Below the pieces are notes generated by a model. It saw only the letters and a list, made by a program, of their open reading frames with translations. It was not told the DNA's origin and did no database searches. A stretch of 64,000 nt of DNA from Mytilus galloprovincialis (taxonomy: Eukaryota). The position numbers were made by a program, and so were the translations under genes. Within the stretch, counting starts at the first letter, position 1. Each line of letters starts with the position of its first letter. Positions 6,189-63,117 of the stretch are shown one piece after another. The stretch lies in assembly GCF_965363235.1 (NCBI RefSeq), contig NC_134847.1, positions 63,980,144 to 64,044,143 on the forward strand. Reading direction: 5' to 3'.

Positions 6189-6375
6189 GGTATTGTACCA
6201 CTATCCTGTCAACACTGAGGTTGCGAGTTCAAATCCAGCACGTGGCAGGTGCGCTAGACGCAAATCTTAACTGACTGAAATTGTCAGTTTTGCCGAAGGT
6301 TGGTGGTTCTTTCCGACTTCCTCCACCATTAAAAATCAACCTCCACGAAATAGCCAATAGTGTTAGAATATAATA
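6189..6375 (+). mobile_element. tRNA-derived SINE (B-box-like gagttcaaatcc)
   Basis: caacactgaggttgcgagttcaaatcc...ttaactgactgaaattgtcag... shared with 62145-62410 and a fragment at 23640. Confidence 0.6.
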
Positions 6376-21479: not shown

Positions 21480-23110
21480 TACAAATAGAGTGAAGATAGA
21501 TTAATTTTAATTGAAATTTCAAAGACTTTAATTCCATTTGAAAAGGATTTCTATTAATTTCAAAGACTTTAATTCCATTTGAAAAAGATTTCTATTCACT
21601 TATACAAAGTTATTGTACGAAAACCAAGAAGAATGCTTATTTGGGCCCTTTTAGGGCCCCTAATTCCTTAACTGTTCAGACCAAAAATCCAAGAATCATT
21701 CCTAACCTTCCTATTGTGGTCATTAACCTTGGGTTTAAATTTGATAGATTTCTATTTACTTATACTTAAGTTATTGTGCGAAAACCAAGAAAAATGCTTA
21801 TTTGGGCCCTTTTTTGGCCCCTTATTCCTATTAGGACCACAACTCCCAAAATCGATCCCAACCTTTCTTAAGTGGTATTGAACCTTGTTTTAACAAATTA
21901 TAAACCTTGTTTTAACAAATTATAGAGATCCATTCACTAAAACTAAAGTTATTGTCCGGAAACTAAATGCGTCTTTGGACGACTACCACAACATCATACC
22001 ATTATACGACACAAAAATAACAAGAATGTGTCCATAGTACACCGATGCCCCACTCGCATTATCATTTTCTATGTTCAGTAGACCGTGAAATTGGGGTCAA
22101 AACTCTAATTTGGCAATTAAATTAGAAAGATCATATCATAGGGAACATGTGTACTAAGTTTGAAGTTGATTGGACTTCAACTTCATCAAAAACTACCTTG
22201 ACCAAAAATTTAACCTGAAACTTGCACTATTATTTTCTATGTTCAGTGGACCGTGAAATTGGGGTCAAAAGTCTAATTTGGCAATTAAATTAGAAAGATC
22301 ATATCATAGGGAACATGTTTATTTAGTTTGAAGTTGATTGGACTTTAACTTTATCAAAAACTACCTTGACCAAAAAATTTAACCTGAAACTTGCACTATT
22401 ATATTCTATGTTCAGTGGACTGTGAAATTGGGGTCAAAAGTCTAATTTGGCAATTAAATTAGAAAGATCATATCATAGGGAACATGTGTACTAAGTTTAA
22501 AGTTGATTGGACTTCAACTTCATCAAAAACTACCTTGACCAAAAACTTTAACCAGAACGAACGGGACGACAGACAGATGAACGGATGGACGGACGGACAG
22601 ACCAGAAAACATAATGCCCCTCTACTATCGTAGGTGGGGCATAAAAATAAATTGTATATTTAACTTCTTATTATAGATAAGCATGGACACATCTTCAGGT
22701 CCCAATAAATTCAAGACATTTTGATAAATTGCTGCACTACCAGTGTATGATATATAAAAAAGAAGATGTGGTATGATTGCCAATGATATGCATGTCATGA
22801 GCAATCAATATTAAAGTATGTTTAAAAGAATTATGAACAAGAATGTGACCATAGTACACAGATGCTACCACTCGCACTATCATTTACTATGTTCAATGGA
22901 CTGTGAAATTGGGGTCAAAACTGTAATTTGGCATTAAAATTAGAAAAATCATATCACAGGGACCATGTATAAAAAAATTCAAGTAGATTTGTCTTCAACT
23001 TCAGCAAAAACTACCTCGACCATAAACTTTCTTGGAGCAGGACAGATGACTGGACGGAAGAACGGACTGATGCACAGACCAGAAAACATAATGCCCATAA
23101 ATGTTTGTAA
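21480..23110. repeat. Composite intronic tandem-repeat block: ~110-bp units (21480-21990), then 3 copies of a ~175-bp unit (22040-22560) ending in a gacggacgga-rich linker, plus a diverged 4th copy (22820-23110) with the same linker
   Basis: Direct repeats of cactattattttctatgttcagtggaccgtgaaattggggtcaaaagtctaatttggcaattaaattagaaagatcatatcatagggaacatgt... Confidence 0.85.
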
Positions 23111-23296: not shown

Positions 23297-23639
23297 CTGT
23301 AATACAGATTTTAAGCATAAGCATTGTATGGAATAACGTTAAAATCTTGAGTTCATTTCAGACAATTTTAATGATATGTATATTGTATTTTGATAAAAAC
23401 AAGCAAATGTCTTTTTATCGTCACCAACTAAACTATGGGTCGCCATATTCTGGTTGGACAAAGTTATATTTTTAGGCAAAGAACAATCAACTGTATCTAT
23501 CATAAGATTGTGTTCTGTTTAACATGACTGCTGTAGGGTTTGTAGGGTTGGTTTACAGAACTGCTGATAGTTTGGAAGGATCAATTCAAATATATTTTTG
23601 GCCTCAGGGGTCAAGAAATTTTAATTGTTTATTTACATT

Positions 23640-23730
23640 ACTAGCTTGTCACCACTGAGGTTATGAATTTAAACTCTGTATGTAGCAGTTTGTCTGACTA
23701 CAATCTAAATTGACTAGGATTGCCTGTTAT
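23640..23730 (+). mobile_element. tRNA-derived SINE fragment
   Basis: ccactgaggttatgaattt...ctaaattgactaggattgcctgtt matches the SINE copies at 6189 and 62145. Confidence 0.4.
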
Positions 23731-23984
23731 TGTGTCAAAGGTTGTGGTTATCTACAGATTCCTCCCCAAATAAAAAATGGCTGCCAAAATATAGCTAAGA
23801 GAGCTGAAGGTCATGTTAAATACCAACAATCAATTGATCATATAATATTCATTTTATTTTTTTATTCAAATGTGTTCAACTTTGCCTTTTTATTACATTG
23901 AAGTTATGAAACTCCAAATAACATTAAACAGATAAAAGAATTATCCAATCCAATTAAGTTTAAGGGCTTTTTTTCTTGGCTTTT

Positions 23985-24725
23985 TTATTAAGCTTGTGTT
24001 TGACTTACATTCTATTTCACTTTCACACTCTATCAGCATTCTCTCAGCCTGTACTTGTGTTTGACTTACATTCTATTTCACTTTCACACTCTATCAGCTT
24101 TCTCTCAGCCTGTGCTTGTAACTTGCCTTCTGTTTGACTTACATTCTATTTCACTTCCACTATATAAGCATTTTCTCAGCCTGTGCTTGTGACTCGCCTT
24201 GTGTTTGACTTACATTCTATTTCACTTTCACTATATTAGCTTTCTCTCAGCCTGTGCTTGTGACTCGCCTTGTGTTTTACTTACATTCTATTTCACTTTC
24301 ACTATATTAGCTTTCTCTCAGCCTGTGCTTGTGACTCGCCTTGTGTTTTACTTACATTCTATTTCACTTTCATATTCTATCAGCATTCTCTCAGCCTGTG
24401 CTTGTGACTCGGCTTGTGTTTGACTTACATTCTATTTCACTTTCACACAGCATTCTCTCAGCCTCTGCTTATGTTTGACTTACATTCTATTTCACTTTCA
24501 CACTCTATTAGCATTCTCTCAGCCTGTACTTGTGTTTGACTTACATTCTATTTCACTTTAACACTCTATTAGCATTCTCTCAGCCTGTACTTGTGTTTGA
24601 CTTACATTCTATTTCACTTTCATATTCTATCAGCATTCTCTCAGCCTCTGCTTGTGTTTGACTTACATTCTATTTCACTTTCACACTCTATTAGCATTCT
24701 CTCAGCCTGTGCTTGTGACTCAGCT
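23985..24725 (-). repeat. Satellite of ~11 units (62 or 74 bp). Each unit is a copy of the 3' end of MVP exon 22 (…AQAERMLIECESEIE) plus its gtaagtcaaacacaag splice-donor/intron start
   Basis: Read on the minus strand, each unit is caggctgagagaatgctgatagagtgtgaaagtgaaatagaatGTAAGTcaaacacaag. The array directly abuts the exon. Confidence 0.9.
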
Positions 24726-27639: not shown

Positions 27640-29355
27640 CTAAATGGAAAACAAGAGGCTCTCAAGAGCCTGAATCGCTCACCTGGTAAACAATGCCTTA
27701 TTGAACATATTGAACCATGCCAGGCAAACATGTACAGCTAACAATTCTTCAATATTACAAATATATATGACTTACTGTTTATAAATAAAGAAAATGAGAC
27801 CAAAACACAAACACTTAAAACTTAGCAATGGACTGTGCAAATGAGGTCAAGTTCAAATAAAACCTGCGTAACCGACATATAGATCATAAAATATTTTCAT
27901 ACACCAAATATAGTTGACCTAATGCATAAAGTATTAAAAAAATAGACCAAAACTAAAAAAGTTAACTTTGACCACTGAATTATGAAAATGAGGTCAAGGT
28001 TAGATGACACCTGTCAGCTAGACATTCAGGGCTGATAGATCTTGACCTAATGAACATTTTTACCCCATGTCAGATTTGCTCTAAATGCTTTCGTTTTTGA
28101 GATATAAGCCAAAAACTGCATTTGACCCCTATGTTCTATTTAAAGTAAGGGCGGCCATGTTTTTTGACGGATCAAAAATCGAAGCACACACTTTGTGCAG
28201 GATAATATAAGGAACTATCATGCTAAGTTTCATCCAAATCCATTCAGTAGTTTCAGAGGAGAAGATTTTTTAAAGTTAGCAAATATGATGAACAAATTGT
28301 AGAAAATTGTCATTAAAGGACATTTACCCCTTAAGGGGTCAATTGATAATTTTGGTCATATTAACCTATTTGTAGATCTTACTTTGCTGATCATTTTTGC
28401 TGTTTACAGTTTATCTTTATCTATAATGATATTCAAGATAATGACCAAAAACTGCAAAATTTCCTTAAAATTACCAATTAAGTGGCAGCAACCCAACAAT
28501 GGTTTGTTTGATTCGTCTGAAAATTTCAGGGCTGATAGATCTTGACCTAATGAACATTTTTACCCATGTCAGATTTGCTCTAAATGCTTTCGTTTTTGAG
28601 ATATAAGCCAAAAACTGCATTTGACCCCTATGTTCTATTTAAAGTAAGGGCGGCCATGTTTTTTGACGTATCAAAAATCGAAGCACACACTTTGTGCAGG
28701 ATAATCTAAGGAACTATCATGCTAAGTTTCATCCAAATCTATTCAGTAGTTTCAGAGGAGAAGATTTTTTAAAGTTAGCAAATATGATGAACAAATTGTG
28801 AAAAATTGTCATTTAAGGACATTTACCCGTTAAGGGGTCAATTGACAATTTTGGTCATATTAACCTATTTGTAGATCTTACTTTGCTGATCATTTTTGCT
28901 GTTTACAGTTTATCTTCATCTATAATAATATTCAAGATAATGACCAAAAACTGCAAAATTTCCTTAAAATTACCAATTAAGTGGCAGCAACCCAACAATG
29001 GTTTGTTTGATTCATCTGAAAATTTCTGGGCTGATAGATCTTGACCTAATGAACATTTTTACCCCATGTCAGATTTGCTCTAAATGCTTCCGTTTTTGAG
29101 ATATAAGCCAAAAACTGCATTTGACCCCTATATTCTATTTTAAGTAACGGCGGCCATGTTTTTTGACGGATCAAAAATCGAAGCACACACTTTGTGCAGG
29201 ATAATCTAAGGAACAATCATTTTAAGTTTCATTCAAATCCATTCAGTAGTTTCAGAGGAGAAGATGTTTGAAAAATTGTTAACGACGACGACGACGACAA
29301 CGGCGGACGCCAAGTGATGAGAAAAGCTCACATGGCCTTTTAGGCCAGGTGAGCT
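27640..29355. mobile_element. TIR-bounded non-autonomous element with ~2.7 internal tandem copies of a ~480-bp unit; ends gagcctgaatcgctcacctgg ... ccaggtgagct, followed by a (gacgac)n tail
   Basis: Left end at 27676 tcgctcacctgg, right end at 29341 ccaggtgagc (inverted); internal tandem units at 27990-29290. Confidence 0.6.
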
Positions 29356-29454
29356 AAAAAAATTCTTTAAAATATATATTTAGTTTTATTGTAATATGAC
29401 TATACATGTATCAAGCATACAAACTTCTTAATTTGCTAAAAATATGTACCGTAC

Positions 29455-29789: not shown

Positions 29790-30600
29790 AGGGTATAAAC
29801 TTTTATAGTGTAAAAGAGAAAAGGTGTGAACCTTTATGGTGTGAAAGAAAAATAATGTGACCCTTCAATGTGTAAAAGAGAAAGGATGTGAACTATAACG
29901 GTGTAAAAAAGAAAGAATGTGAACCTTTATGGTGTAAAAAAGACAAGATGTGAACCTTTATGGTGTAAAACAGAAACTGTGTGAACCTTCAAAGGTGTAA
30001 AACAGAAACTGTGTGAACCTTTATGGTGTAAAACAGAATCTGTGTGAACCTTCAAGGTGTAAAACAGAAACTGTGTGAACCCTTATGGTGTAAAATAGAA
30101 ACTGTGTGAATCTTTATTGTGCAAAAGGGAAAGTGTGTGAACCTTTATGGTGTAAAAGAGAAACTGTGTGAATCTTTATGGTGTAAAACAGAAACTGTGT
30201 GAACCTTTATGGTGTAAAACAGAATCTGTGTGAACCTTCAAGGTGTAAAACAGAAACTGTGTGAACCCTTATGGTGTAAAATAGAAACTGTGTAAATCTT
30301 TATGGTGCAAAATAGAAACTGTGTAAATCTTTATGGTGCAAAAGAGAAACTGTGTGAATCTTTATGGTGCAAAAGGGAAACTGTGTGAATCTTTATGGTG
30401 TAAATGAGAAAGTGTTTTAACCTTCATGGTGTAAAAGAGAAAGAGTGTGAACCTTTATGGTGTGAGAGAGAAACGGTACAAATCTTTATGGTGCAAAAGA
30501 GAAGGAATGTGAACCTGTTTGGTGTAAAATAGAAACTGTGTGAACCTTTATGGTATAAATAGAAACTGTGTGAATCTTTATGGTATAGTTTTAAAGAAAA
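29790..30600. repeat. Minisatellite, ~41-bp unit (tgtgaacctttatggtgtaaaacagaaactg), ~20 copies
   Basis: Contiguous head-to-tail units with no spacers, so not CRISPR-like. Confidence 0.9.
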
Positions 30601-39714: not shown

Positions 39715-40200
39715 GTAAAAGATTTGTTATATTGTCCCATACATGAATATATATGGTTTAGGGTGGGGATCTTGAGGGTTTTCAAGTTCTCAAACAGGAA
39801 GGGGTAAGGTGACCCCAGGGACTTCCCCTATATTTGTTTTGTTATATTGTACCATACATGAATATATATGGTTAAGGGGTGGGGATCTCATCGGTTTCCA
39901 AGTTCTCAAACAGGAGGGGGTAGGGGGGCTCCCCCTATATTTCATTTAATTAGTTATATTGACCCATACATGAATATATATTGTTTAGGGGTGGGGATCT
40001 CGACCGTTTCGTAAGTTCCCAAACAGGAGGGGGTGGGTCACCCCATGGACTCCCCTTATATTTCATTTGATTAGTTATATATATAGTCCCATACATTGAA
40101 TGTATATGGTTGAGAGGTGGGGATCTCATCCGTTTCAAAGTTATCAAACAGGAGGGGTTCGAGTGGCCCAAAGGACGCCACCTATATATGATATGATTTG
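39715..40200. repeat. Tandem repeat, ~120-125-bp unit x4 (…catacatgaatatatatggtttaggggtggggatct…caaacaggagggggt…ccccctatatttc…)
   Basis: Four collinear units. Confidence 0.85.
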
Positions 40201-49113: not shown

Positions 49114-49996
49114 CTGAAAGTAATAAATAAGCAAATAAAATAATTTGACAGATTAAAATACAGAACAGCTAATATTTTGATACCCCTTACAGCAATTGTT
49201 TTTTGGTCTTATTGATACATTTGCAGTTTCTAGACAATCAATTAAATCAACATAATGCAATACTTGGGAACATTAAAACAATGTTATGAAAGTTTAAATT
49301 GATTTTTTGGCCTTTGAAAGTCTGAGATGTGCCACTTGATATTCTGCAAATTGTGAATTATTAGCCTATAATAAATTTATACTAAGTGGAATCATTTAAA
49401 TTTATGGTTTTCCTAAACCTGTTGGTATCCAAATTAACAATGAATCCACAGACACATGTTTTCGTACAATATTCAAAGTGTATGCCCTTACTGATAAAAT
49501 ATTTCAAGTGTTTCATCTGCTGATATATAAACCATGCCATCTAATAACATTATATCAGTACCTACTGTGCGAGGGCTGAATAACCAGTCAAGGTCATTAA
49601 AAACTCCCATCATTATCAACATTATTTCAGTATATTTCATACGGTTATATGATGTACAGTGCTGTGCAATGTAACTCTATGACATATACATCATGCCATC
49701 TTCTCTATGACATATACATCATGTCGTCTTATAACATTATAGCAGTACATTCCTAAGTCTATGTCATGAACAGTGTAGCACATTGTTTCTCTCTGATATA
49801 TAAATCATGCCTTCTTATAAAATTATATCAGTATATTTCATACAGCTTTATCATGAACAGTGTAGTTCAGTGTTTTTCTCAGATATATAAACCATGCCTT
49901 TTTATAACATTATAGCAGTATATTTCTACGGCTATGTCATGAACAGTGTAGCGCATTGTTACTCTATGACATACAGGTAATGTAATCATCACTCAC

Positions 49997-54701: not shown

Positions 54702-55789
54702 TTAGTTCTATGTATATATAAATAGTAAAAAACAAGGGATAATTTTAGTTCCAGTAAAAAACATAGCTTTCAAAACAACTATTTAAATTTAGAAGTGGAA
54801 AAATAAAATGATATAATTAAAATCTGTCTCTAGCTGAATTTCTTCACATTGGTTCATTTACTTTGTGTTTACCCTTCCGTTAATCAGAATGAGGTCCAAA
54901 TAAAATGATTTTAATGAAATAGAGACCGTATCGTTTATTTTCATACATTGAAAGCAATGTTTATTCAAGAATAAAAAAAAAATCAAAATGATAAAAGATT
55001 TTTAACCCTTACCATGCTGACTTGTTTTCTACAGATGTAGTCTGTATGCTGAATTGTTTTGTTTAAATTTAAAAAAAAATGCCATCATTATTAATTTGTC
55101 CTAAACTAAATGATAAACGCCCCGATTGGTCCAAAACTTGATATCCATATAGTTGAAGAACTATACTTTAATTTGTCTAAATGGTTGCTATGGTAACAAA
55201 CATTTTTGCCTTTTTATTAGTATTTTTTGCATTAAAATGTATTTTACTGGCTAGTCTAGCCATATAATCATTTCTTATCCATCTAAATAAAATTTTAAAA
55301 TGTAGTAAACTGAAAATTACTGAAAATAAAAATACTTATATCACAAAAATGTGAAATTTTAATGTAAATAATATATGACTCACCTGTTTTAAGATGCTCT
55401 TATTGTTACAAGAAATTTATAAGATAACAAATTTTTGCTTTACTACAAACAGTCTCAACACTATAATAAACATGTAATAGATCATAAGAACTAATTCAGT
55501 TTAAGTATTCAAACAAATAAAAAGTGGTTGCTATGGTAACATCTTCGTTTCCTTAGTTTCAATTGCAGGGGAATATGCATTATTAGGACAAAAGTGCAAC
55601 ATAAATTTGACATTTGTAACCTAGAAAGCAGGATATTTTATTTTTGACACATTTGACAACTTAGTTTGTAATTCTTATTACCTCTGTTTCTGTCCAGGTT
55701 TGAATAATTTCAATTTATAACTAGTTTTGTGTTAGGCTATATGATTATATGATGTTTTGATAAGTTTAAGCAATTTTAAATTTTAATGT

Positions 55790-55985
55790 ATTGTTTTCTC
55801 GTTTCAATTGTTTTACATTGTCATTTCGTGGCCTTTTATAGCTGACTATGTGGTATGGGCTTTGCTCATTGTTGAAGACCGTATGGTTACCTATAGTTGT
55901 TAATTTCTGTGTCATTTTGGTCTCTTGTGGAGAGTTGTCTCATTGGCAATCATACCACATCTTCTTTTTTATACACAAGTTTTAT
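55790..55985 (+). mobile_element. SINE/MITE-like repeat (…gtctcattggcaatcataccacatcttc family) nested inside the 3' non-coding part of the piggyBac element
   Basis: …ggccttttatagctgactatgtggtatgggctttgctcattgttgaagaccgtatggttacctatag…gagagttgtctcattggcaatcataccacatcttc. Confidence 0.65.
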
Positions 55986-56390
55986 CTGTAGATGTACAAA
56001 CTTAAACGTCTTAAACATATTTTTTCTGATAAAGGAATGGGATTTTTTGTTATGTTCCAATCAAATTCAGGTAATAAAAATACTCTTCCTTTATACAAAC
56101 AACTATACTGACAACAAATTGTATATACCATGCCGCTGAATTTTAAGCAGACAAAACCCTACCAAATCATTGACTTTTGTAAGATCATTTGAATGTACAC
56201 AACTGAAAAGATTGGTTGCCTCGTAATTAACATTTACTCCACATCTCCTTGTTTGTCTACTGACTAGTACTGTTCTTAATTAAAAATTATGAAAAGGTCA
56301 TTTGATACTGTAATTGAAAACAATAATCCATAACTACAATTTTATAATAACTAAATTGATATTGATAACATATAAACATGCACAAAGAAA

Positions 56391-58232
56391 CTATTCCTCA
56401 TCAACTGGTTGGACAGAAGAATTCTTCCATCTCTTGTAAGCAACAACATATTCCTTTTGTGTATGCCATATCTTAAAGCATGGTTCAATGCACAAAGAAA
56501 CATTACATTCTCTACATTCGTAACAAGTCTCATGACCTGGCCGTTTGCGTTTTTGTAGGTTGTTCATATTTACATTGTTCTTTTCAGCCTCATTGCAGAC
56601 TTTGCATAAACGTGCAATGTTTTTTTTTTTGCCCACCCCTACAATTCTAGAAATGAAATGTCTTTCACTTAGGCGTTCTAATTTCGCATTTGAAGGCCTT
56701 CCTACTTTATCACTTTCTATTGGGTTATTAGATACAAGTTCAGTTATTAATTGTCTTCTGAACGCTTTATGTGTTATATTAGGGTGGTCAGCTTTATACA
56801 AAGTGTATGCATCTAGAACAGCAATAGCAAGAACATGGAAAATTACCTTTTTCCACCACTTAAATGATTTAACAACACTATTAATGTAAGTAATCATTTG
56901 ATCAGACCGATCAACACCACCCATATATTTATTATAGTAGTTCACAACACTAGGTTTTCTTATATAATCATTTGTCTCACGGTCACGACGGCGTGTGTTG
57001 ACCAAATTGGTTTTATGTATAGTCGAAAGCATAAAAACAGCCTTTCCATCAAGAAATTTGACACAATTTAAAGGACCATTACTCATTACAGAAAGATCTC
57101 CTTTATTTGTAAGTTTTTTGTCTTTCAAAAATTGTGGAATACCACGACGGTTAGACCTTACAGTGCCTGTCGCTCCTACACCTAGACCATAGAGATCCCA
57201 AAATAGTTGGGGTGATGTGTAGTAATTGTCACAATACAGATTATAACCTTTTTCATACATGCCTCGTAACATATCCATGACTAAGTCATACGTCGCGCCA
57301 TTTGAGCTTGGACCGATACCCGACTTTCCTGTATACAATTTAAATTTTGAAACATAACCGTTACTGGAGTCACTGATCATGTAGGCTTTGATTCCATATT
57401 TAACTGGCTTGTCAGGACTGTAAACTCGAAATGATAGATTACCCCTCCAAGGAATCATTCCTTCATCTAATGAAATTGATTGACCAGGTGTGTAAACTGA
57501 GTGAAATCTGTTTACAATACGACCATAGAAAGTTCCAAGTTTAAAAAGTGGGTTGTAGTTTGGTTGACCTCTAGCAACATACTCATCATTGTTGGCAAGA
57601 TGGAAGAAAGATGACATTAGGAGAAATCTGTCTCTTGGCATAGTTGACGGAAAGAATGGTGTTGAAGTGACAGGGTTTTTACTCCAGTAATCAGTCACGT
57701 CTGACTGTGACAGAATACCCATTGCAAAAACTACAGCAATGAAACGCTTCATTTCTGTGGCAGTAGTGTTTGTCCACTTTCTAAACCTTGAAAATCTGCT
57801 CAAGTTATTGTTTTTATCAAGATATTGCTTTGCGTATCTGTTTGTTTCCTCAGAAATGTTCTCAAAATCATTTTCATTGACATATAAATAGAAATAATCA
57901 GAAACGGACGCATTGTCTGGGAGGTCACACTTAATTCCTGGGGTTTGCGTAAAAGGTAGAAGTTCTGGATTTTTTTCACCCATAACCCAGTTATCAATAT
58001 CAAACAAATCATCTCTTTCAGAAACATTGTCAATATTTAGGTCATCCTCAGCAAAGTCATTTTCAGTAAATCCTTCAAATTCTTCATTTTCACTATCAGT
58101 GTCAGCAAATAGTTCACATATATTTTCAGCAATAGATGTGCTGGCTTCTGCCATTATCAGAAAGTAAACACAGAAACGCCCCCTTTTTATTTTATTTTGC
58201 GAAAAAGAAAAGATAGAAAAAAATAGCTGCAT
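56391..58232 (-). CDS. piggyBac-family (DDE_Tnp_1_7) transposase, 613 aa in the longest ORF; the likely true start is the internal Met at 58154 (MAEASTSIAEN...), giving 587 aa
   Basis: Catalytic DDD context is present (…ISLDEGMIPWRG…, …YCDNYYTSPQLFWDLYGLGVGATGTVRSNRRGIP…, …YMGGVDRSDQMI…). The C-terminal Cys-rich domain is CKVCNEAEKN…CYECRECNVSLCIEPCFKIWHT. There are no frameshifts or stops. Confidence 0.95.
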   Translation of the reverse strand: MQLFFSIFSFSQNKIKRGRFCVYFLIMAEASTSIAENICELFADTDSENEEFEGFTENDFAEDDLNIDNVSERDDLFDIDNWVMGEKNPELLPFTQTPGIKCDLPDNASVSDYFYLYVNENDFENISEETNRYAKQYLDKNNNLSRFSRFRKWTNTTATEMKRFIAVVFAMGILSQSDVTDYWSKNPVTSTPFFPSTMPRDRFLLMSSFFHLANNDEYVARGQPNYNPLFKLGTFYGRIVNRFHSVYTPGQSISLDEGMIPWRGNLSFRVYSPDKPVKYGIKAYMISDSSNGYVSKFKLYTGKSGIGPSSNGATYDLVMDMLRGMYEKGYNLYCDNYYTSPQLFWDLYGLGVGATGTVRSNRRGIPQFLKDKKLTNKGDLSVMSNGPLNCVKFLDGKAVFMLSTIHKTNLVNTRRRDRETNDYIRKPSVVNYYNKYMGGVDRSDQMITYINSVVKSFKWWKKVIFHVLAIAVLDAYTLYKADHPNITHKAFRRQLITELVSNNPIESDKVGRPSNAKLERLSERHFISRIVGVGKKKNIARLCKVCNEAEKNNVNMNNLQKRKRPGHETCYECRECNVSLCIEPCFKIWHTQKEYVVAYKRWKNSSVQPVDEE

Positions 58233-59304
58233 ATTTTGGATAACTCATTGGAAAAACAACAAAACTCATTCATATTTATCAATTTATTTTTCTTGAATAT
58301 ACCTGAAAAGCCCATAAATATGGGAAAATATCAGACGATAAATAGATTTGACAACGGATTCACATTTTGTTTCTTTGATTCACGTTTCTTTTATTTCGGA
58401 AAAGAATTCCAAGTTTTCAAAGATTTTCGAGGAATATAGGTATTAACAGCACCTAGAAAGATGGATTTGTGTTCAGGCATTATTAATTTTATGGGAAATG
58501 TGTATCCTCAAGCATGGACACTGATAGAGTTACTGAAAAAAACTATAAATTGTTGGTAACAAACTGTGCGGCAACTTTCATTTTCTCTTTCGGAACGTCT
58601 CTCAAGCGAGTAAACTTCCGGTTGATATTTCCATACAATTTATGTATTTTTACCACCAAACTTCTAAATTTGCAAAATATCAATCAAATAACAACGATAA
58701 ATTAATATTCACCTTTAAGACAATATTTTATTCTTACGGTTTTAGACGAAATCTATTTATATAATACAGGAAAGGGCGGGGCATGTGCGCGGGAATTTCA
58801 TATTTCACGTAAACTGTTTTATTTCATATTTTTACTTAAATAATTCCATTTTTTTCACAAAAGAACTTTTACACGTGTCAAAATATTCTTCTATTTACCC
58901 AGACATATAGTTTTGATAATCAAATGAACAAGAATTGAGCGAGGACGAAAAGGATTTCCCTAGATGTATTTTTAGATTTTTTACGTCATGCCAAAAACAA
59001 ATTATTTTCCTGAAAGTAAAATTAAAGTGTATATTTGTTTATTATAAAGACTTAAAATGGTTCAAATTGAATAATGGATATAGATCTGATGGCTCATTCA
59101 AATTTAAACTCGGAGTTTTGTGATTATGCGAGGATTTGAAGGTTTTTTGAAAGGTCAGAAAATTGCCAGTGTAACCCGTCAAAAGACGGGTTCCGCACTG
59201 AGAACGACGACGTCAAACCCGTCAAAAGACGGGATCCGCATGGTAAGGGTTAATGCAAAGTTGCAAAAGAAAAATTCATATGACAGTGTGAGAGAAAAAT
59301 ACTA

Positions 59305-60269: not shown

Positions 60270-61469
60270 CTGAAAAATAAATTAATATGATATAAAGTGA
60301 ATTTTTACATATGCTGTGTCTATTCAAATCAGGGCTTCCAAAAAATATTTGAGCCAGCCGGACATTTCATATCTGATCCAGATTTTAATCCCTTAAGACT
60401 TAGTCACAAAAGGCAATTATGGTAATCAGATGGCCATTCCAATGATTGACATTACATTAAAAAAAAAAACGATTTTAAACTTTACTTTGATATGATATGA
60501 ATTTGATGTACGGATGTAACTGTTAAATTGGCAGTGCATCATTCAAAGTGTGCACATCAGCGTGCTCATATCTGCCTTAGACTTTTTATTTGTGCAAAAT
60601 GACATTGTCAAAAACTTTACTTTCGTTTCAAATTGTTCTAACCGGAGAGGTCAACCGGATGTTGACTTGACAATGGTAAAACATGGACCATAAACGGATA
60701 TGTAAAATCAGTGTACGTTAACAAAGCACGACTGAGTGAAGAAGCTCTTTCCACGTTATTTCTTCAACAAAATACTTGAAATGAACGTTAGATACATGTA
60801 TCAATGATAATTTTAGCATTTTTGAAGAAATGTAGGATGCATAATTAAATTTCCCACCTGTGCACATGCGCACACGTGTTCTAGTTCATACGACGTAGTT
60901 CTGAGGATTTTTCATTTAAATCCTTTTTAAATTTTTCATCAAATCATGTTGATAACTAATTTCTAATAATTTTAATCTTTTGGACTAAATCAATTAGAAA
61001 CAAACCGCTGAAAAGTAAGAACAAAAATTGTGAATAACCGATCAATTTATACAATGTCTGGTACTGAACATAGTTCACCTGTCACCTGAACAGGTAGATT
61101 TCAGCTGTCCAACTACTAATTTGCCTTGATTAAAATTATAAAGTATTGAAGTAGGTGTTGTTTTAATAGTAATTAATCATCATGTCACATTTATGACTGG
61201 AAATGTGATGATGTTAAAGGCAAAAGGTTGGGTCAAAAAGATCGTGAATTATGTAAAAATGACCGAAAAAGCCTTGAAAACTAAAAAGTATATGACCGTT
61301 TCATACTTTGACCAGCCGGACTTTTACCAGACATTATACAAATGACCGGAATATATGACCGTTTTGGAAGCCCTGATTCAAATCTGTTTTTCTTCTTATT
61401 TTTTATAACAACAGGGACTTTGGTGGCCAGATGGTATAAGAAGTCAAACTTCTGTATCGCTAGCCTGCA

Positions 61470-62150
61470 AACTAGAGGCTCTAAAGAGCCTGTGTCGCTG
61501 ACCTTGATCTATGTGCATATTAAACAAGGACATAAATGGATTCATGACAAAATTGTATTTTGGTGATGGTGATGTGTTTGAAGTTCTTACTTTACTGAAC
61601 GTTCTTGCTTCTTACAATTATATCTATAATGAACTTTGCCCATTAGTAACAGAGAAAATTACTTGGTAAAAATTTACATAAATTTACCAAATTAATGAAA
61701 ATTGTTAAAAATTGACTATAAAGGGCAATAACTCCTTAAGGGGTCAATTGACCATTTTGGTCATGTTAACTTATTTGTAGATCTTACTTTGCTGAACATT
61801 ATTGCTGTTTACAGTTTATCTCTATCTATATTAGTATTCAAGATAATAACCAAAAACGGCAAAATTTCTTTAAAAATTACCAATTGGGGGCAGCAACCCA
61901 ACAACCAGTTGTCCAATTCATCTAAAAATTTCAGGGCAGATAGATATTGACTTGATTAACAATTTAGCTCCTTGTCAGATTTGCTCTAAATGCTTTGGTT
62001 TCAGAGTTATAAGCCAAAATCTACATTTTACCCCTGTTCTATTTTTAGCCATGGCGGCCATCTTGGTTGGATGGCCAGGTCATCGGACACATTTTCAAAC
62101 TAGATACCCCAAAGATGACGTTGGCCAAGATTGGATTAATATTTAAATCT
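61470..62150. mobile_element. Diverged single-unit relative of the 27640-29355 element (same gaggctctaaagagcctg..tcgctgacc head, one ~480-bp unit)
   Basis: 61700-62140 aligns with the 480-bp unit (…ggggtcaattgaccattttggtcat[ag]ttaac[ct]tatttgtagatcttactttgctga…tttgctctaaatgcttt…). Confidence 0.55.
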
Positions 62151-62410
62151 GTTTTTCTCCTTCTTTCTGACCGGGATCTCAGTGCCCAAAAGGTCTAAGT
62201 TGTCAAACTTCTACATTGCTAGCCTATCAACACTGAGGTTGTGAGTTCGAATCCCCCATGGGGAAGGTGCACTTTACTCCAATCTTAATTGACTAGGATT
62301 GTCAGTTTTTATAATGGAGGTATTACCGTAGGTGATTTTCTTTGAGCACTCCAGCTGCCTCCACCAATGACCACCACAAAATAGAACATTAGTGCTGAAA
62401 GTGGTGTTTA
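62145..62410 (+). mobile_element. tRNA-derived SINE, full-length copy (A-box-like tctcagtgcc, B box gagttcgaatccc)
   Basis: gaccgggatctcagtgcccaaaagg…caacactgaggttgtgagttcgaatcccccatgg…ttaattgactaggattgtcag…; copies at 6189 and 23640, with a 5'-only fragment at 61380-61470. Confidence 0.65.
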
Positions 62411-62548
62411 TCACCAATTAATCCTATGCCAAAAACAGGCAAACACTAAACAAAACAGCCAAAAAAATGTTTGTAATAAATTTTGTACATTGCGACCAGT
62501 CAAACATTTGTTTAATTACTCTGAGCTTCAAAACAATTTTACACTTAC

Positions 62549-62628
62549 TTGCTTTGGCTGGCTATTGCTCCAGGTAAATCATTTTCTTTTCTTTTCTTTT
62601 GTTTTAGTTTATCTTTCTTTCTTTCTCT
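62549..62628 (-). CDS. CDC5L: CDC5L exon c: RERKKDKLKQKKRKENDLPGAIASQS. The acceptor is either ttttag or ttttagag (NAGNAG); the phase favours the second
   Basis: Donor gtaagt at 62548; ~ human [27 protein letters not shown]. Confidence 0.6.
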
Positions 62629-63117
62629 CTAAAATTGTACAAATAAATACATGTTTATACTTGAAGGGAGAAAATATTTGATAAAAAAGAAAGTATATGT
62701 CTATTTTTTACCTATTGCATTTGAAAATCACAGTCTCAAAAATCTATCCACAACTATTCTCTTTTGTTTCTCTTTGATTTTCTTAGAAATTGCTGGTTGT
62801 GGCAAAGTAAAGAGTATGAAATTGGTAAATTCAGTAATTTTTACATTTATTCATGGACATGAATCCTAAATGGTGATAGTGACACCACCCAATTTTAACT
62901 TGATCTGTGTTTGGTGGTGTATTAGTTTATAAATATCCCGCTGATGTGAAGTAAAGAGAGAATGCAGACAAAAGCAAACAAAAAAGTGATGCCATTCAAA
63001 TTTGAACTTGTTCTATGTTAGGAGGTAATACGCGAGGGCATTATTATCAACATCCAGGAAAATTGTTACCCATGAAAATAAGTGAATTAAAAGTATACTT
63101 GGTAAGAAATGACTTAC

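Follow-up and report, generated by a model that had tools for sequence, protein, structure and literature searches.

A probable non-autonomous Helentron with an unusually long tandem unit in a Mytilus genome

The 64,000 nt stretch of Mytilus galloprovincialis DNA analysed here (contig NC_134847.1, positions 63,980,144 to 64,044,143; hereafter the window) carries, at positions 27649-29360 of the minus strand, a 1712 bp interspersed repeat that is very probably a complete non-autonomous Helentron (HINE) of a Mytilus-type mussel. Coordinates are positions in the window, and the element is read 5' to 3' on the minus strand. Its cis anatomy can be followed in full, its copies are multiple and dispersed, with sharp boundaries and T-rich ends, and both target site duplications (TSDs) and coding capacity are lacking. 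From the 5' end, its modules are arranged in the order TTTTT, subterminal inverted repeat (subTIR), 3 nt spacer, inverted repeat (IR), (GTC)n microsatellite, tandem array, spacer, second subTIR, palindrome and CTTGTTT, as set out below together with a related copy found elsewhere in the window.

27649..29360, minus strand: probable complete HINE (non-autonomous Helentron), 1712 bp; head and tail co-oriented, ends set where similarity to other copies begins and stops
29356..29360, minus strand: 5' terminal T-run; seven T at 29356-29362, of which four to five are counted to the element
29355-29342, minus strand: 5' subTIR, AGCTCACCTGGCCT, found by inverted-repeat search; pairs with the nearby IR as the 5' hairpin
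29338-29325, minus strand: inverted copy (IR), AGGCCATGTGAGCT, separated from the 5' subTIR by a 3 nt spacer
29282..29309, minus strand: microsatellite (GTC)n, imperfect near the head, read in the sequence; on the plus strand (GAC)n is clean at 29282-29298
28025..29273, minus strand: central tandem array, 499 bp unit x 2.5, 96% (TRF and blastn)
27687..28024, minus strand: 338 bp spacer between array and 3' flank (blastn self-comparison)
27677..27686, minus strand: 3' subTIR, CCAGGTGAGC, perfect 10 nt complement of the 5' subTIR
27656..27671, minus strand: 3' palindrome AGGCTC-TTGA-GAGCCT, 6 bp stem (folding)
27649..27655, minus strand: 3' terminal CTTGTTT, near-invariant in 11 aligned tails; similarity ends right after it
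61469..62140, minus strand: 5'-truncated copy of a sister subfamily, with tail, spacer and approximately one unit (blastn and pattern search)

A perfect 10 nt inverted repeat links the two ends of the element: on the plus strand, GCTCACCTGG at 27677-27686 is matched by CCAGGTGAGC at 29345-29354, with 10 of 11 positions pairing when the alignment is extended. A preliminary description of this region had treated these sequences as terminal inverted repeats (TIRs); the repeat itself is real, but it is subterminal, and the right-end coordinates given for it were approximately 4 nt too low. The 5' subTIR begins 5 nt inside the inferred 5' terminus, and its 3' counterpart lies 38 nt before the 3' terminus. 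Because the element, in HINE orientation, lies on the minus strand, the left terminus formerly named its 'head' is the 3' tail. The plus-strand end motif of this tail, GAGGCTCTCAAGAGCCTG at 27655-27672, does recur at the second locus with one mismatch (61475-61492), as had been noticed from the sequence, and has no third copy in the 64 kb; its chance expectation in the window is 0 (no matches in 100 shuffles).

The minus strand from 29360 to 29301 reads TTTTT AGCTCACCTGGCCT AAA AGGCCATGTGAGCT TTTCTCATCACTTGGCGTCCGCCGTT (GTC)6, and it is here that the previously described right-end hairpin and (gacgac)n run were both found where expected. The arms of the hairpin, on the plus strand AGCTCACATGGCCT (29325-29338) and AGGCCAGGTGAGCT (29342-29355), are 14 nt long and complementary at 13 of 14 positions; as single-stranded DNA the structure is predicted to fold at -13.1 kcal/mol (z = -5.9). 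The plus-strand run occupies 29282-29298 and continues imperfectly to approximately 29309. At the opposite end, the 3' flank reads CCAGGTGAGCG ATTC AGGCTCTTGAGAGCCT CTTGTTT, the palindrome sitting 7 nt from the 3' terminus with a 6 bp stem of -4.7 kcal/mol.

Relatives were sampled through a protein search, which led to contigs of an ENA metagenome assembly, and through a pattern scan of metagenome contigs. The head pattern AGCTCACCTG-N15-TGAGCTTTTCT was present in at least 120 metagenome contigs and had no matches among viral contigs. Animal genes, in the form of ankyrin- and TRIM-like open reading frames (ORFs), are borne by contigs containing the head, so these are host (bivalve) DNA within metagenomes. 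The matches listed yielded 127 heads, 124 of them distinct; AGCTCACCTG and TGAGCTTTTCT are invariant across the aligned heads, and the hairpin feature is retained in all 127. Upstream of the 124 distinct heads, T occupies each of positions -1 to -5 in 80-98% of cases and the composition from -6 outwards is that of the background, so the 5' boundary is fixed and the flanks are unrelated. Of 90 heads elsewhere, 64 have a (GTCN)n-like run behind them, and central arrays of 143-166 bp units were detected after 11 of the 41 heads having at least 600 nt of downstream sequence.

At the other end, a generic tail pattern recovered no fewer than 17 tails built as CAGGTGAGCGAT(GT)-palindrome-(T)CTTGTTT. 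The palindrome itself varies by family (GGCCCATGGGCC, AGGCCTGTGGGCCT or, in the window, AGGCTCTTGAGAGCCT), its position and neighbours being constant, and a strict search for the tail palindrome, allowing up to three substitutions downstream of the 127 heads, returned the window copy only. Nine elements are complete, a head and a co-oriented tail lying on a single contig; the shortest of these is 0.39 kb and the longest, at 1.7 kb, is the window copy. With at least 120 contigs sharing one end and nine elements sharing both, there are indeed further genomic copies bounded by both termini, on whose existence the preliminary description had made its proposal depend. The TSDs for which it had suggested looking were seen in none of the nine complete elements, and none are to be expected of a HINE.

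Two of the sampled loci are of particular use in understanding the window element. The first, L001, shares the head of the window element, which is followed by a (GTC)n run and then by three units spaced 465-507 bp apart, in flanks differing from those of the window locus; its diverged array was missed by TRF and recovered by a repeat search. The second, L002, is a complete single-unit element of approximately 0.6 kb with a GACACAGGCTCTTGA-type tail, accompanied by the start of a second element. Two further arrangements were observed in the sample. In L105 (minus strand, approximately 46-125), a HINE 3' end, …GGGCCTCTTGTTTG, directly abuts the TTTTTAGCTCACCTG of the next element, head-to-tail. 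L007 and L022 are one locus recovered from two metagenomes, and consist of a 424 bp HINE without central repeats.

This anatomy closely follows that of elements described in other invertebrates. Oyster HINEs comprise a 5' subTIR with a complementary IR at a distance of 1-12 nt, then a microsatellite, central satellite-like repeats, a 3' subTIR and a 3' palindrome, and insert at T-rich or TT sites without TSDs (PMC7492417); GTCY, GTCC and GTCK microsatellite motifs are found in the left flanks of the oyster Cg_HINE (PMC7492417). Cg_HINE and the window element share their module order, a GTC-type microsatellite and the lack of a TSD, with arrays of two to five monomers in the oyster and 2.5 in the mussel. 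Some Cg_HINE have two arrays in series, to which the 499 bp array followed by two repeats spaced approximately 147 nt apart is comparable, and truncated derivatives are common, as exemplified here by the truncated relative at 61469-62140. The likeness is one of architecture, the hosts being oyster and mussel respectively, and Cg_HINE monomers are 138-181 bp long as against 499 bp. Similarly, the DINE-1 and HINE elements of Drosophila, mites and mosquitoes (PMC4067079) have the same subTIRs, IR, microsatellite, central repeats, 3' stem-loop, boundaries of 2-5 T and TT target, and are likewise non-coding. In general, their subTIRs lie a few nt in from the 5' end, 8-35 nt separate the palindrome from the 3' end, the boundary strings of 2-5 T lie within the element, the target is TT and there is no TSD (PMC4067079). 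Similarity at the sequence level is not to be expected between these elements and the mussel one. The DINE-1 subTIR is 13 nt long, compared with 10-11 nt here, and an autonomous partner has been found for several DINE-1/HINE families, whereas none was found for the window element.

The bivalve elements originally named pearl (CvA, CvE and CvG in Crassostrea virginica) and DTC84 in Donax trunculus consist of a left flank with a subterminal inverted repeat, core repeats, a microsatellite and a right flank with a terminal inverted repeat, the whole being bounded by AA (PMC3879986). The plus strand of the window element matches this plan, including an inverted motif of the 11 nt class and the 'AA' boundary, and thereby has the module order and AA ends of pearl sensu Gaffney 2003, with a trinucleotide (ACG)n microsatellite containing ACGG-like variants where pearl has one of tetranucleotide type. 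The comparison is again by plan and not by sequence, and it does not extend to the core repeats, which are approximately 160 bp long in up to five or six copies in pearl and DTC84 (those of pearl being akin to satellites of the BIV160/Cg170 type) but 499 bp in 2.5 copies here, with no significant periodicity of approximately 166 bp and only the first 75 nt or so alignable. Pearl and DTC84 were originally termed MITEs, or miniature inverted-repeat transposable elements, with an AA TSD (PMC3879986); in the account given by PMC7492417, citing Thomas and Pritham 2015, they are re-categorised as non-autonomous Helentrons, a class to which MgE (below) has also been moved. Hence the suggestion that the window element was a MITE/satellite hybrid of the pearl/CvE kind is supported as regards its relatives, while the 'TIR-bounded MITE' label is superseded by that re-categorisation. 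MgE of M. galloprovincialis (Kourtidis et al. 2006) is also pearl-like with central repeats, in the same genus-level host. As MgE is described in PMC3879986 as being without a microsatellite segment, and the window element has one, the latter appears, on the strength of that description, not to be simply MgE.

Judged against the features by which HINEs are recognised, the window element has an IR beside its 5' subTIR forming a hairpin with 14 nt arms 3 nt apart, a palindrome near its 3' end, both a microsatellite and central repeats between the flanks, strings of T at its boundaries with no TSD, and non-coding relatives dispersed in unrelated flanks on at least 120 contigs. By contrast, the terminal inverted repeats and fixed-length TSD of a classical TIR MITE are absent, the inverted repeats being subterminal and the ends asymmetric. 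A number of points nevertheless weigh against the assignment. The subTIR, at 10 nt perfect (10/11), is marginally short of the 11-15 nt quoted for HINEs; the fold of the 3' palindrome is by itself not significant (z = -0.96); and the exact AGGCTCT..AGAGCCT tail palindrome occurs only in the two window copies and, in degraded form, in L002. The 499 bp unit is outside the 140-180 bp typical of HINE central repeats. The boundaries (to within 2 T) and the TT target are putative, having been placed from alignments. Finally, assignment to the Helentron mechanism is made on structural criteria, since an autonomous Helentron sharing these termini did not turn up among the loci sampled.

By analogy with the rest of the family (PMC4067079, PMC7492417), a Helentron Rep/helicase, possibly with an endonuclease, encoded elsewhere in the genome would recognise the cis signals of the element in trans. 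The 5' T-run and subTIR/IR hairpin would constitute the start signal, and the 3' subTIR, palindrome and CTTGTTT the stop signal. One strand would be nicked at the 5' end and unwound as far as the 3' palindrome or terminus, giving a rolling-circle-type single-strand intermediate that would integrate at a T-rich (TT) site and leave the target unduplicated.

The most unusual feature of the element is its central array. A tandem array had been recognised previously, as approximately 2.7 copies of a unit of approximately 480 bp; TRF defines it as 2.5 copies with a period of 499 bp and 96% matches, and the units are 96.5% and 95.2% identical to one another by blastn. On the minus strand, the array begins straight after the microsatellite, and the first 75 nt or so of the unit (…ATCTTCTCCTCTGAAACTACTGAATGG…GAAACTTAGCATGATAGTTCCTTA…) show homology with the beginning of the canonical HINE central repeats, approximately 158 bp long, at other loci. 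The array is therefore the body of the element itself, repeated in tandem, rather than inserted foreign sequence. A framework, …CTTCTCC.GAAC.ACTG…AAACTTGG…, is patchily conserved between these approximately 158 bp repeats and the start of the 499 bp unit, as compared across L039, L048, L066, L094, L118 and the window unit. A second block, …AAGATGGCCGCC…, is present only in the window unit, in the copy at 61469-62140 (copy 2) and in L001, L002 and L024. When translated, the shared framework looks protein-like (e.g. …NHWANFNQTWHK…), with no coding constraint in the one frame tested.

The unit appears to be of mixed ancestry. Its first 110 nt or so are a version of the module closer to the L024 type than to copy 2, L001 or L002, and the remaining 390 nt or so are common to copy 2, L001 and L002 at 83% identity; as the two portions match different lineages, the alignments indicate a putative exchange of modules between HINE lineages. 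The possibility that the unit is a higher-order repeat of three monomers of approximately 166 bp was considered and rejected, local alignments of each segment against the rest scoring no better than shuffles; the sole trace of sub-periodicity is a motif of approximately 25 nt, TGCAGTTTTTGG.ATTATCT, recurring approximately 170 nt apart. Between the array and the 3' flank, the spacer (27687-28024) contains two diverged repeats of approximately 110 nt (27758-27866 and 27905-28013), which are 72% identical by blastn and lie approximately 147 nt apart; the spacer has no match in any of the metagenome loci fetched.

There is about an even chance that these observations represent a distinct lineage of mussel HINE, in which the whole body of approximately 0.5 kb, chimeric from two lineages, has become the repeated central unit, around three times the canonical length. 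An independent locus, L001, also has three units of approximately 465-507 bp behind this head, so that a trait of the lineage is more likely than a one-off event. Growth of the array to 2.5 copies was probably through unequal exchange or replication slippage. Because the array would travel with a mobile element, such a lineage could seed a long-monomer satellite in Mytilus. With its internally duplicated body, the window element acts as a vehicle scattering satellite-like repeats across the genome.

Three other explanations were considered. The array could be a passenger gained at this locus, when a short HINE was invaded by, or recombined with, an unrelated 0.5 kb tandem repeat. Such a composite origin would account for a unit three times the usual length without significant sub-periodicity of approximately 166 bp, for a 338 bp spacer unmatched elsewhere and for the division of the unit into approximately 110 nt resembling L024 and approximately 390 nt resembling L001, L002 and copy 2, which points to recombination between lineages. 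Yet the junction with the microsatellite is exactly where the array starts, as it is for the central repeats of other HINEs, to which the start of the unit is homologous; L001, with its different flanks, repeats the arrangement of head and long units; and L002 has a one-unit form between the same head and tail. The long unit is therefore the body of this lineage, travelling with it, and a locally acquired passenger has little probability.

A cut-and-paste MITE, that is a deletion derivative of a TIR element with a DDE transposase, in which a tandem array happens to be present, mobilised through its TIRs and producing a short AA/TT TSD, has about as little. The 10 nt inverted repeat lies close to both ends, the A/T dinucleotides at the boundaries are what older papers took as the 'AA' TSD of pearl and DTC84 (PMC3879986), and the window also contains an intact piggyBac transposon. 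However, the inverted repeats are short and subterminal, and the asymmetry between one end (hairpin and microsatellite) and the other (palindrome and CTTGTTT) is kept in more than 100 copies. The T-run, at 4-5 nt, behaves like element sequence and not like a 2 nt TSD, nine complete copies lack any flanking duplication, piggyBac has TTAA targets and unrelated ends, and elements of this architecture are Helentron derivatives (PMC4067079). As for the sequence not being mobile at all, the window is full of tandem arrays, and a local satellite-like duplication might have come to be flanked by an inverted repeat and hairpins through coincidence; this is scarcely credible given that the head motif, with a chance expectation of 0, occurs identically in at least 120 unrelated contigs and the tail consensus in at least 17 loci with sharp similarity boundaries. 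A mobile HINE with a long body accordingly remains the reading favoured here.

The window HINE is non-coding. Its longest ORF is 56 aa, and exact-sequence look-ups of ORFs from the element interior and left flank gave no match. A protein search with the concatenated pseudo-ORFs of the unit found no annotated homologue, the only database matches being two unannotated metagenome ORFs that are themselves copies of the repeat; the contigs bearing them are L001 and L002. Substitutions in the unit frame are distributed over the three codon positions as 15/5/11, with no third-position bias. An open frame of 70-80 codons within the unit was rejected as a coding candidate, with a dN/dS of approximately 0.5 calculated from very few differences and a stop in copy 2. 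Inspection by eye of the ten longest ORFs in the 122 loci fetched, on which no Pfam scan was made, revealed none resembling a Rep/helicase. The window itself has only eight ORFs of at least 110 aa, one of which encodes the piggyBac transposase.

The second family member, formerly placed at 61470-62150, shares the tail and approximately 390 bp of the unit with the complete element, although not both termini. Its tail (61469-61504) reads CAAGGTCAGCGACAC AGGCTCTTTAGAGCCT CTAGTTT, and these 36 nt are 86% identical to the tail of the window element by blastn. The unit extends over 61679-62140, of which 61679-62064 (approximately 390 nt) matches the 499 bp unit at 83% (blastn); head, hairpin and microsatellite are all absent. 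As it retains only the tail and about one unit, with SINE-like sequence on both sides, this locus is a remnant of a sister subfamily, truncated at its 5' end and immobile, and it sits among repeats that are rearranged or nested. The SINE-like (short interspersed nuclear element) dispersed repeat abuts the truncated end at 62141 to approximately 62400, and a partial copy abuts the tail at 61376-61466; further copies are at 6201-6291 and 23634-23731. It had been called a tRNA-derived SINE, and its dispersed, SINE-like nature holds. It carries a B-box-like GAGTTCGAATCC, and a tRNA origin is plausible, though no tRNA or other RNA family was detected by ARAGORN or by Rfam (gathering threshold across the whole window; E <= 1 on 61300-62700).

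Non-autonomous Helentrons are very common in bivalve genomes. The window element is new, and possibly represents a new subfamily, of a well-described kind, its main unusual trait being the long unit. It is a clean, fully delimited Helentron-derived non-autonomous element in a Mytilus-type genome, and matters little beyond annotation: its head, TTTTT-AGCTCACCTG...TGAGCTTTTCT, and tail, CAGGTGAGCGAT-palindrome-CTTGTTT, can be used to mask or mine an abundant family in mussel assemblies and in metagenomes contaminated with host DNA. The 0.5 kb unit widens the range of central-repeat lengths known in bivalve HINEs and is relevant to the seeding of satellite DNA by transposons, leaving the picture in oysters unchanged.

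A second family of HINE, unrelated in sequence, is found at 22019-22647 on the minus strand, a further sign that such elements are nothing out of the ordinary in this genome. It is made up of TTTTT, a hairpin, (GTCC/GTCT)n, central repeats, a 3' subTIR (GTGGGGCAT), a short palindrome and, at the terminus, CTTGTT; the hairpin, ATGCCCCACCTAC-GATA-GTAGAGGGGCAT (22614-22642), folds at -10.1 kcal/mol (z = -4.3), and the central repeats are three copies of 169 bp (22052-22557). These 169 bp repeats may be related to Mytilus satellites of the ApaI/MgE type, to which this second family may stand closer than the complete element does. A one-monomer relative of this second family lies 200 bp further on, at approximately 22825-23100.

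An apparently intact piggyBac-type transposon occupies approximately 55008-59253, with a 613 aa DDE_Tnp_1_7 ORF at 56391-58232 on the minus strand. Copies 99.9% identical to it were found with other flanks in Mytilus edulis GCA_963676685.2 (OY782964.1; species according to PMC11304980), in ENA ERZ6864376, the assembly that yielded L001 and L002, and in three Logan runs, a pattern that points to recent activity within the Mytilus edulis complex. As the match spans only the 4.2 kb transposon and the flanks differ, it places the window in the genus or species complex and does not identify the locus.

By blastn, the other tandem arrays in the window show no relationship to the HINE unit. The window starts with one of these, 50 copies of a 27 bp unit at 2-1358, and another, 25 copies of a 31 bp unit at 29798-30584, begins only approximately 440 bp from the 5' end of the HINE. 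Further arrays, with units of 61/71/142 bp, of 112-126 bp and of 86 bp (three copies), are located at 23993-24721, 39721-40198 and 49701-49965.

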